Positions 1-1,224 of a stretch of DNA of 1,224 nt are shown here, one piece after another; positions within the stretch are counted from its first letter, which is position 1; the number at the start of each line of letters is the position of its first letter. Both the position numbers and the translations under genes were made by a program. Below the pieces are notes generated by a model. It was not told the origin of the DNA. It saw only the letters and a program-made list of their open reading frames with translations, and did no database searches. The DNA comes from a phage, in the sequence record OR846179.1; one strand, written 5' to 3'.

Positions 1-58
1 TTTTGTAGCTTTTGTCTTTTGGCTTTGCTGTCTCGACTTGTCTAGCATTGAGCTTCAT
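1..58 (-). CDS. int: 5' end of a P4-type tyrosine integrase gene (N-terminal arm-binding domain); partial, continues beyond the left window edge
   Basis: Minus-strand ATG at 58..56 opens a frame with no stop to position 1, translating MKLNARQVETAKPKDKSYK. The AKPKDK-YK pattern matches the conserved N-terminus of P4-family integrases as I recall it. Context supports it: an att-like core and arm-type repeats lie immediately upstream. Only 19 codons are visible; an in-frame alternative ATG exists at 70..68; no Shine-Dalgarno is evident. Confidence 0.5.
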   Translation of the reverse strand, partial: MKLNARQVETAKPKDKSYK

Positions 59-112
59 TTGGGGGCACATTTCTAATCGAAGTTAAGATGCCCCCAATTA
101 TGCCCCCAATGA
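58..112. repeat. Cluster of three TGCCCCCA(A) motifs, candidate arm-type integrase binding sites on the int side of the core
   Basis: tgccccca occurs on the minus strand at 60-67 (plus reads tgggggca) and on the plus strand at 89-96 and 101-108. The last two sit in a tandem 12-bp duplication: atgcccccaatt (88-99) and atgcccccaatg (100-111). Confidence 0.4.
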
Positions 113-126
113 CATCCGGATTTCAA
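97..126 (-). promoter_or_regulatory. Candidate sigma70-type promoter for int, overlapping the arm-type repeats
   Basis: On the minus strand, TTGAAA (plus 121-126) is a -35-like hexamer and CATAAT (plus 97-102) a -10-like hexamer, 18 bp apart, roughly 40 bp upstream of the int ATG at 58. Hexamer match only; no experimental support. Confidence 0.25.
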
Positions 127-222
127 CGGACAACCTCGGACGATCCAAGATCGTAGAAATCGCTGAAAGTATTGATTTTTAATGGATAATCGGACTTACT
201 CGGATGGACTTGGAAGTAATAA

Positions 223-246
223 TGGTGCCGAAGGCCGGACTCGAAC
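223..246 (-). other. Attachment-site core: 24-nt 3' end of a tRNA-Leu gene (T-loop, acceptor 3' strand, CCA); not a complete tRNA
   Basis: Minus strand reads GTTCGAGTCCGGCCTTCGGCACCA: T-loop TTCGAGT, T-stem 3' strand CCGGC, acceptor 3' strand CTTCGGC, discriminator A, CCA. This matches my recollection of the E. coli leuX 3' end. The sequence 5' of it (247-300) is AT-rich and cannot form the rest of a tRNA. Confidence 0.55.
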
Positions 247-296
247 ATCAAAATAAGTTAATGATAAAAAACAAATAATAAAACACAACAATGAAA

Positions 297-321
297 TATG
301 CCCCCTTTTGTGCCCCCACTG
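297..321 (+). repeat. Two further TGCCCCC motifs, candidate arm-type integrase sites on the other side of the core
   Basis: tgccccc at 299-305 and tgccccca at 311-318, same orientation, 12-bp spacing, about 55-70 bp from the core. Confidence 0.4.
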
Positions 322-387
322 TTTTTCTGACCAATCTATTTTCAGCCCATCAATAAATCGGAAAGTTAAATCATTTTTAATCAGTAA

Positions 388-414
388 GTTTGGATCCGTA
401 GCTCGGATCCAAAC
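388..414. repeat. Perfect 11-bp inverted repeat with 5-bp spacer (gtttggatccg-tagct-cggatccaaac); candidate protein-binding palindrome or hairpin
   Basis: 388-398 is the exact reverse complement of 404-414. It sits between the att-like region and the iteron repeats. No adjacent U-tract on either strand, so a classic terminator is unlikely. Confidence 0.5.
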
Positions 415-435
415 CAGTGCATCTTTTATCCACAT

Positions 436-555
436 AAAAAATTTTTTTTCGAAAGAACTGTTCACACTGTTCACCTTTCTGTTTTCTCCTTTTATTTCAG
501 TTTGATAGGTGGTGAATAATGGGTGAAGGGTGAACATTCGATTCTTCACCTCCGG
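436..555. repeat. Direct repeat copy 1 (~120 bp) of a crr/ori-like iteron region carrying TGTTCACC octamers
   Basis: Aligns to 617-736 at a 181-bp offset with high identity. Contains an A6T8 tract (436-449); exact TGTTCACC at 468-475 (+) and 529-536 (-); degenerate copies at 459-466 (+), 511-518 (-), 522-529 (-) and 543-550 (+). Confidence 0.7.
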
Positions 556-616
556 CATTCTGCCGGTGTGACTCATACCGGTGATTAATCCCCCGTACTG
601 AAATCACACAGGGAGA

Positions 617-736
617 AAAAAAGTTTTTTTTGATTTGATTGTTCACACTGTTCACCTTTCGTTTTTCTCTTTTAATTTCAGTGTGATAACTGGTGAATAT
701 ACGGTGAAGGGTGAACAGTGGATTGTTCACCTTCGG
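617..736. repeat. Direct repeat copy 2 (~120 bp) of a crr/ori-like iteron region carrying TGTTCACC octamers
   Basis: Contains an A6-g-T8 tract (617-631); exact TGTTCACC at 649-656 (+), 710-717 (-) and 724-731 (+); degenerate copies at 640-647 (+), 692-699 (-) and 703-710 (-). Confidence 0.7.
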
Positions 737-748
737 GGAATTCAGGGA

Positions 749-774
749 TAAAAAAAGACCGGCAGATGCCGGTC
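749..774 (-). terminator. Rho-independent terminator downstream of the primase-like CDS
   Basis: 7-bp GC-rich stem (757-763 gaccggc / 768-774 gccggtc), 4-nt loop, followed on the minus strand by a run of 7 U (plus-strand A run 750-756). It lies 16 nt past the stop codon at 793..791. Confidence 0.6.
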
Positions 775-790
775 AGGTGGGTCATGAGGG

Positions 791-1224
791 TCAGGTTGTT
801 GCAGGGTCGTCACATTTTGGCAGCCAGTCGCCGTAGCTTTCCTCTTTCAGCGTCAGGTTGGTCTGTATCCCCTGTTTGGTATGGCGCTTCTCGTAATTCA
901 GTCCGTATTCCTTCAGCATCACCGGCAGCCCCAGCCCGAACATTTTCAGACTGAGTACATTCCGGTAGCCGTTTGCCTCCATGTAGGCCAGATAGGCGTG
1001 ATAGAGGTATTTACGGTAATTACGCGGGATGATACTGGCGTTCCCCATATACATGCCGCTGGTCTGCGGCAGGGTTTCCAGATAGCCGATAAAATCAAAC
1101 GTCGGGTCGGCATCCCGTTTGATGTTCAGCGCCTCGTCTGAGTTCTGCTGGGACTGAAGCAGTGACCGGGCGAGCATCGGGTCGCTGAACTTCTGCATCA
1201 GGTGACGCACGATGACCGCCAGCT
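791..1224 (-). CDS. 3' portion of a P4-family primase/helicase (alpha-like) gene, encoding the C-terminal domain; 5' end lies beyond the right window edge
   Basis: Minus-strand frame is open from the window edge to TGA at 793..791. The GTG at 1210 in the ORF track is only the first in-window start; the frame stays open upstream (..LAVI..). The product call is by context (TGTTCACC iterons directly downstream, terminator after the stop) and a general resemblance to P4-type primase C-termini; no homology search was possible. Confidence 0.7.
   Translation of the reverse strand, partial: LAVIVRHLMQKFSDPMLARSLLQSQQNSDEALNIKRDADPTFDFIGYLETLPQTSGMYMGNASIIPRNYRKYLYHAYLAYMEANGYRNVLSLKMFGLGLPVMLKEYGLNYEKRHTKQGIQTNLTLKEESYGDWLPKCDDPATT

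Follow-up and report, generated by a model that had tools for sequence, protein, structure and literature searches.

Nearly half of all E. coli genomes contain P4-like satellites, and anti-phage hotspots are part of these elements. The attP of phage lambda combines arm-type and core-type Int sites with IHF and Xis. In satellite phage P4 (X51522 / NC_001609 / X05947; Pierson & Kahn 1987), the int gene, three P-arm repeats, a 20-nt core, two Pʹ-arm repeats, the crr region (2 × 120 nt), the terminator t-alpha and the alpha gene follow one another in this order. Both this layout and its mechanism have been known for P4 since the 1980s, and the present analysis leaves them unchanged. Only when P4 is drawn as a circle are int and alpha neighbours, with att between them, and P4-like elements in genome databases are almost only integrated, with reportedly none existing as plasmids (PMC8628076). 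Islands of the PAI I536 type also have a P4-family integrase beside a core formed by a tRNA 3ʹ end, with Int autorepression and IHF (PMC7286903), but they are without crr and alpha and are not helper-dependent satellites.

The stretch of DNA analyzed here, referred to as the window, comprises 1224 nt of the phage record OR846179.1. Upon alignment, the whole window (1–1224) was colinear with positions 3857–5069 of P4 (X51522) at 96.1% identity, and it shared with P4 the order and the orientation of all the elements named above. The main features of the window are as follows.

58–1, minus strand: 5ʹ end of int, with the ATG at 58–56; first 19 codons only, translated as MKLNARQVETAKPKDKSYK
97–127, minus strand: Pint, the int promoter, with the −35 TTGAAA at 126–121 and the −10 CATAAT at 102–97; X05947 annotates both here
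223–246, minus strand: att core; 223–242 is the annotated 20-nt core of P4, and 223–246 is a 24-nt identity to the 3ʹ end of tRNA-Leu(CAA)
388–414, no strand: inverted repeat between attP and crr, perfect over 11 bp (I15) with a 5-nt loop; −18.9 kcal/mol, z = −5.6
436–736, plus strand: crr, the cis replication region, with 120-nt direct repeats at 436–555 and 617–736 (D1, 83% identity); "crr" and "ori type 1 repeat" in P4
757–774, minus strand: t-alpha, the Rho-independent terminator of the alpha operon, from a terminator scan; −14.1 kcal/mol, z = −5.5; "talpha" in P4
791–1224, minus strand: 3ʹ end of alpha (primase-helicase), last 143 codons with the stop at 793–791; Pox_D5, E = 1.5e-17

All the sequence features that define a P4-family attP were found, namely a core made of a tRNA-Leu 3ʹ end, arm repeats on both sides of it and an adjacent P4-type integrase. 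The features that define crr were likewise present: the 3ʹ end of alpha is bordered by two direct repeats of 120 bp, and TGTTCACC type I iterons are contained in them. The int gene, repeats, core, iterons and primase listed in the original prediction, which was made from the letters alone, were thus all in place, and the conclusion drawn from them was right, but it went unrecognized that together they form the well-known int-attP-crr-alpha layout of P4. The five arm repeats, Pint and positions 244–503 were identical with P4, whereas the differences were concentrated in the core-proximal P-arm spacer at 141–222, where identity fell to about 79%. As divergence was confined largely to this spacer while the stretch from the Pʹ arm into the first crr repeat (244–503) was 100% that of P4, the sequences suggest that the replication module has had a history separate from that of int and the P arm. 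In addition, the window had G at position 243 where P4 has A, so that the identity to the tRNA extended over 24 nt in the window and 20 nt in P4. A 9-nt insertion relative to P4 was found at 782–790, just 3ʹ of the alpha stop codon, and it sits in a run of GTCAGGT/GGGTCA repeats (direct-repeat families D3 and D7).

We then considered how the same sequences are arranged in chromosomes. Among 5426 complete E. coli genomes, the best whole-window matches (99.8%) all began at base 223. Bases 1–246 were matched at 100% elsewhere in the same chromosomes, over int and tRNA-Leu (attL), and bases 247–1224 were matched at 100%, with zero mismatches, on the attR side, on the same strand and about 11.5–11.7 kb from attL. 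In these natural integrants, the matches end at 246 on one side and begin at 223 on the other, and the sequence between these two breakpoints is the 3ʹ end of a tRNA-Leu of the leuX type. Beyond the core, attL continued into the tRNA body, while attR continued into an unrelated host flank and then another island. An ARAGORN scan of the window found no tRNA, indicating that only the 24-nt 3ʹ fragment is there, and a reading of the window as a tRNA gene was rejected on the same grounds.

Strain 7784 provides an example of the integrated arrangement. Its attL and attR are about 11.7 kb apart and enclose a whole P4-like element, which is flanked by ahr/tRNA-Leu(CAA) and by a second, decayed island, and whose genes are int, an HTH gene, a type II restriction endonuclease, a cytosine methyltransferase, psu, delta, further regulators and alpha. 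In the leuX element of O157:H7-type strains (e.g., NZ_CP018247 5217858–5229593), the attL side equals 1–246 and the attR side equals 247–1224, both at 100%. Unlike in the window, a distance of about 11.7 kb separates the two halves of this element, both halves border on host DNA, and the attR core has a 1-nt deletion together with A at 243. The satellite represented by the window is essentially the same as the resident adjoining leuX in O157:H7-type E. coli.

A junction probe covering 60–420 was matched over at least 80% of its length in 0 of the 5426 complete E. coli genomes and 0 of 72,556 plasmids (PLSDB). Since 1–246 equals attL, 247–1224 equals attR and the junction is intact in none of these genomes, both arms are element DNA, in the topology of an unintegrated attP. 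The P and Pʹ arms were contiguous across one core, the host flanks of attL and attR were absent, and both sides of the core matched P4. An integrated prophage end was rejected, given the P4 match on both sides and the lack of an intact junction in any genome. The proposal that no bacterial DNA lies on either side of the core, and that the site is attP rather than attL or attR, was therefore borne out. We regard it as highly probable that the region is the complete, unsplit attP of a P4-family satellite, with int-attP-crr-alpha in an order that occurs only in the unintegrated element, whether as a circle or as a linear molecule ending in cos. As an intact attP marks the mobile form, an annotator can tell from it that such a sequence is no chromosomal prophage boundary.

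Two arrangements inside a chromosome, both raised in the original prediction, were weighed against these data. If two P4-like elements lay in tandem at leuX, their internal junction would have the attP topology. Islands in tandem do occur at this place, as seen from the second integrase pseudogene after attR in strain 7784, and some genomes had two copies of the P arm, with up to five matching places in all. On the other hand, no tandem junction was present in the 5426 genomes, and by our reasoning an Int-mediated second insertion into attL or attR would also leave A rather than G at 243, so that a tandem origin is very unlikely. The element could also have been integrated elsewhere by another route, with this att as an unused intact copy. 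Alternative or decayed sites in the family are hinted at by a related P arm in NZ_CP104112.1, as the core after it is a variant one and no tRNA is annotated there. All copies identical to the halves of the window, though, split exactly at this core, at leuX, the window has no second integrase or transposase, and the intact site was in no chromosome; we consider integration at another site to be hardly credible.

The attP as a whole was then compared with its relatives in P4 and in the chromosomes. For the P arm, the comparison set consisted of ten sequences: the window, P4 and eight chromosomal copies at 86%–92% identity. The arms contain the following elements.

59–70, plus strand: P-arm repeat TTGGGGGCACAT, inverted relative to the others; P4 locus 1559–1570; invariant in 10/10 copies
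86–97, minus strand: P-arm repeat, AGATGCCCCCAA on the plus strand; P4 locus 1586–1597; invariant in 10/10 copies
98–109, minus strand: P-arm repeat, TTATGCCCCCAA on the plus strand; P4 locus 1598–1609; invariant in 10/10 copies
114–140, no strand: conserved CGGA block, in which CGGA recurs every 10 bp, with starts at 117, 127 and 137
141–198, no strand: variable P-arm spacer, holding most of the differences between the window and P4; length kept, with only one indel among the copies; 1-mismatch match to the IHF consensus at 165–177
199–216, no strand: conserved core-proximal P-arm block, CTCGGATGnCTTGGAAG, nearly invariant in 10 copies
247–295, no strand: AT-rich Pʹ spacer, about 20% GC; 1-mismatch match to the IHF consensus at 254–266; distance from core to repeats kept in diverged copies
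296–307, minus strand: Pʹ-arm repeat, ATATGCCCCCTT on the plus strand; P4 locus 1795–1806; the part within block 298–319 is unchanged in 8/8 copies
308–319, minus strand: Pʹ-arm repeat, TTGTGCCCCCAC on the plus strand; P4 locus 1807–1818; invariant in 8/8 copies

The five repeats fell exactly on features that the P4 record labels "attP arm sequence repeat". Within the window, the motif TGCCCCCA occurred four times compared to 0.04 expected, a count reached in 0/200 shuffles, and the longer motif WTRTGCCCCC also occurred four times compared to 0.01 expected, again with no shuffle reaching four; the fifth repeat is the copy ATATGCCCCCTT at 296–307, which is additional to the four occurrences of TGCCCCCA. 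Conservation was selective. Positions 59–110 were strictly invariant in the ten P arms and 49–110 nearly so, as the int codons at 49–58 had only two variable columns, in a single copy. Invariance in 10/10 P arms was also observed at 114–131 and 135–140, whereas 141–198 drifted freely at nearly constant length. On the other side of the core, the 22-nt block at 298–319 was unchanged in 8/8 Pʹ arms and at a fixed distance from the core, including two arms with strongly diverged flanks. The P4 annotation, the Arm-DNA-bind_3 domain of the integrase and this selective conservation agree in supporting the repeats as putative Int arm sites, and the arm-site role first proposed for TGCCCCCA gains support from the P4 annotation and from the strict conservation in diverged copies.

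Accessory sites were less clear-cut. The CGGA motifs starting at 117, 127 and 137 are invariant in the ten P arms, and a further CGGA pair with the same 10-bp phasing starts at 191 and 201 (region 191–204). The sequence YCGGAY was weakly enriched in the window (7 compared to 2.5 expected, with 2/200 shuffles reaching 7). Phasing of a motif by one helical turn is typical of excisionase sites, and for this reason we propose the CGGA motifs as candidate Vis boxes or as a candidate site for another accessory protein. The two 1-mismatch matches to the IHF consensus WATCAANNNNTTR (165–177 and 254–266) were sensibly placed, but 110/200 shuffles gave an equal result, so that they are at chance level and count as hints at most.

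The int fragment in the window is the N-terminus of a P4-type integrase, and MKLNARQVETAKPKDKSYK matches the beginning of the int resident beside tRNA-Leu at 100%. The full-length chromosomal integrase has 424 aa with Arm-DNA-bind_3, Phage_int_M and Phage_integrase domains, indicating, through a copy identical over the 19 codons, that a tyrosine integrase of the P4 type with an arm-binding N-terminal domain lies next to the site. In the original P4 annotation, the int start is placed at an upstream ATG (70–68), with the boundary of the P4 int CDS at window position 70. Pint was recovered independently by a consensus promoter scan with 10/12 matches and was invariant across the copies. The arm repeat at 98–109 overlaps the −10 of Pint, and the repeat at 59–70 abuts or overlaps the start codon of int, so that Int bound to these repeats would also repress its own gene. 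According to passages of PMC7286903 that cite Pierson & Kahn 1987, Cali 2004 and Piazzolla 2006, Pint is subject to Int autorepression and Vis repression and has an IHF site. The placement of the repeats fits the autorepression reported there, in the passage citing Piazzolla 2006.

Protein binding and the exact positions of strand exchange were assigned by homology with P4 and other tyrosine-integrase systems, on which the following model is based. The N-terminal arm-binding domain of Int would bind the TGCCCCCA-type repeats, three in the P arm (59–109) and two in the Pʹ arm (296–319), and a further repeat inside int, beyond the window, would also be bound by Int. The C-terminal domains would sit on the core, with the AT-rich spacers bent by host factors. 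The complex would then align the 20-nt core with its identical counterpart, the 3ʹ end of tRNA-Leu(CAA), and strand exchange would take place within the core. The predicted products of integration are attL, consisting of tRNA, core, P arm and int, and attR, consisting of host DNA, core, Pʹ arm, crr and alpha, and the 3ʹ end of the tRNA would be rebuilt from element DNA. Such a site resembles the attP of lambda in that arm repeats surround a short core over a span of about 260 bp, a distinct N-terminal domain of Int reads these repeats, the spacers are AT-rich and bendable, and an excision factor acts on the P arm. It differs from lambda attP in that there is no sequence similarity, in that integration is directed to a tRNA 3ʹ end, which the element rebuilds, and in that the arm repeats overlap the promoter and start codon of int, which would couple the recombination sites to int autoregulation.

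Whether the window was read from a free molecule turns largely on base 243. This base was G in the window, as it is in the host tRNA and in all eight attL copies. As P4 has A at 243, its core is limited to 20 nt. Since the 20-nt core ends to the left of 243, excision by Int is expected to leave A, the base of attR. Of the attR copies with this Pʹ arm, those of strains 7784 and 100117 were examined; both had A243, and in strain 100117 base 243 was the sole mismatch to the window. The core expected from Int-mediated exchange between attL and attR was thus not the one present, although the discrepancy amounts to a single base, and this weakens only the reading of the window as a sequenced excision product. 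As the window equals attL up to and including G243 and the undeleted core, and equals attR from 247 onward, the switch point lies between 243 and 247.

On these grounds, the layout may be real while the join is not a product of Int. A prophage would then have been joined end to end, with the attL copy of the repeat kept and the other dropped, possibly through computational circularization or rotation of an excised prophage or through another non-Int join. Several observations agree with such an origin. Bases 1–246 are exactly attL, G243 included, and 247–1224 are the attR side, with the attR core variants (the 1-nt deletion and A243) absent; the switch falls at the outer edge of the tRNA identity, where only 3 nt are common to attL and attR. 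A243 was found in P4 and in the best attR copy, and 0/248 chromosomal copies matched the core and Pʹ arm (window 223–330) at 100%. The product of an open reading frame read through the junction is not on record, and no circular form was found for the P4-like Sp2 or for any SpLE or prophage-like element of O157 Sakai (PMC2669165). Exact-match scans gave no intact junction in IMG/VR, GTDB representative genomes, PLSDB and JGI metagenomes, and no G243 plus Pʹ arm string in the GTDB representatives and JGI metagenomes, but given the requirement for exact matches, the absence of a positive control and a GTDB set of one genome per species, these are weak negatives. The argument for a re-join also depends on one base: a natural A-to-G variant of the free element would look the same, and a diverged P4-like lineage (L015 and L016) does carry G at this position in attR. 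We therefore take an end-to-end join seriously, at somewhat under an even chance, and the word "reconstituted" in the original prediction may be literally right, as the core has the attL/tRNA base at 243, against what Int excision predicts.

The window may instead come from a physically free copy (excised, episomal or packaged) of the O157-type leuX satellite, whose core would have acquired the tRNA-type base at 243 and with it 24 nt of identity to attB, and we hold this origin only tentatively, from doubtful up to evenly balanced. The O157 relative of the element carries a restriction-modification pair, and if the molecule was indeed free, the window would show directly that the O157 element with these restriction-modification genes is mobile. 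More generally, a test of base 243, with A as the phage/attR type and G as the tRNA/attL type, can separate true excision products from end-to-end reconstructions of prophages.

The chromosomal copies showed some further features of their own. The attR core of the O157-type copies (locus 14071–14094 in strain 7784, and other top matches) had the 1-nt deletion TGGTGC-GAAGG. This deletion may impair excision, which would fit the absence of circular DNA for the P4-like and SpLE elements of Sakai (PMC2669165). Directly after attR in strain 7784 (locus 14295–15384), a truncated integrase pseudogene and a transposase fragment were found, indicating two islands in tandem at leuX. The restriction endonuclease and methyltransferase genes of strain 7784 are located between int and psu (locus 4371–6396), which in this O157-type element is where the known defence hotspot of P4 lies. 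In strains KMi029 and LR9-2, GGTGCGAA was present in three tandem copies at the host-side edge of the attR core. In NZ_CP104112.1 (3437388–3437679), the variant core TGGTGCCGAAGTATGGCATCGAAG comes after the related int and P arm, and it represents a junction that has decayed or else another attachment site.

To the right of attP, the replication features agreed with those of P4. Each 120-nt crr repeat had five TGTTCACC-type iterons, and with at most one mismatch TGTTCACC was matched 11 times in the window compared to 1.17 expected, a count that no shuffle reached. The identity of alpha was also given by the P4 alpha CDS and by the PGAP annotation "primase-helicase". The hairpin at 388–414 was identical in P4, and diverged copies had two uncompensated mismatches; as it has no T-run, it is no classical terminator. 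A search of Rfam at E ≤ 1 returned three chance-level matches, far under the gathering scores, and thus no RNA family.

A dubious minus-strand open reading frame spans the junction at 196–576. With G243 it encodes 126 aa and runs through the core into the P arm, whereas its P4 form (241–576) encodes 111 aa, the lengthening from 111 to 126 aa being due to the loss of a TGA through G243. We rejected it as a real gene, given the lack of any Pfam domain and the overlap with the Pʹ arm, the hairpin and the first crr repeat. In a homology search, its homologues either terminated at the TGA that A243 creates or continued into the host flank, and for the junction-spanning product, taken from five possible starts, there was neither an exact record nor a homologue with its C-terminus. 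The 111-aa form (e.g., WP_001481039.1), which has no Pfam domain, is annotated as "integrase" or "hypothetical protein" in hundreds of genomes, and the "integrase" label probably spread from a P4 record whose title reads "attP region and P4int".
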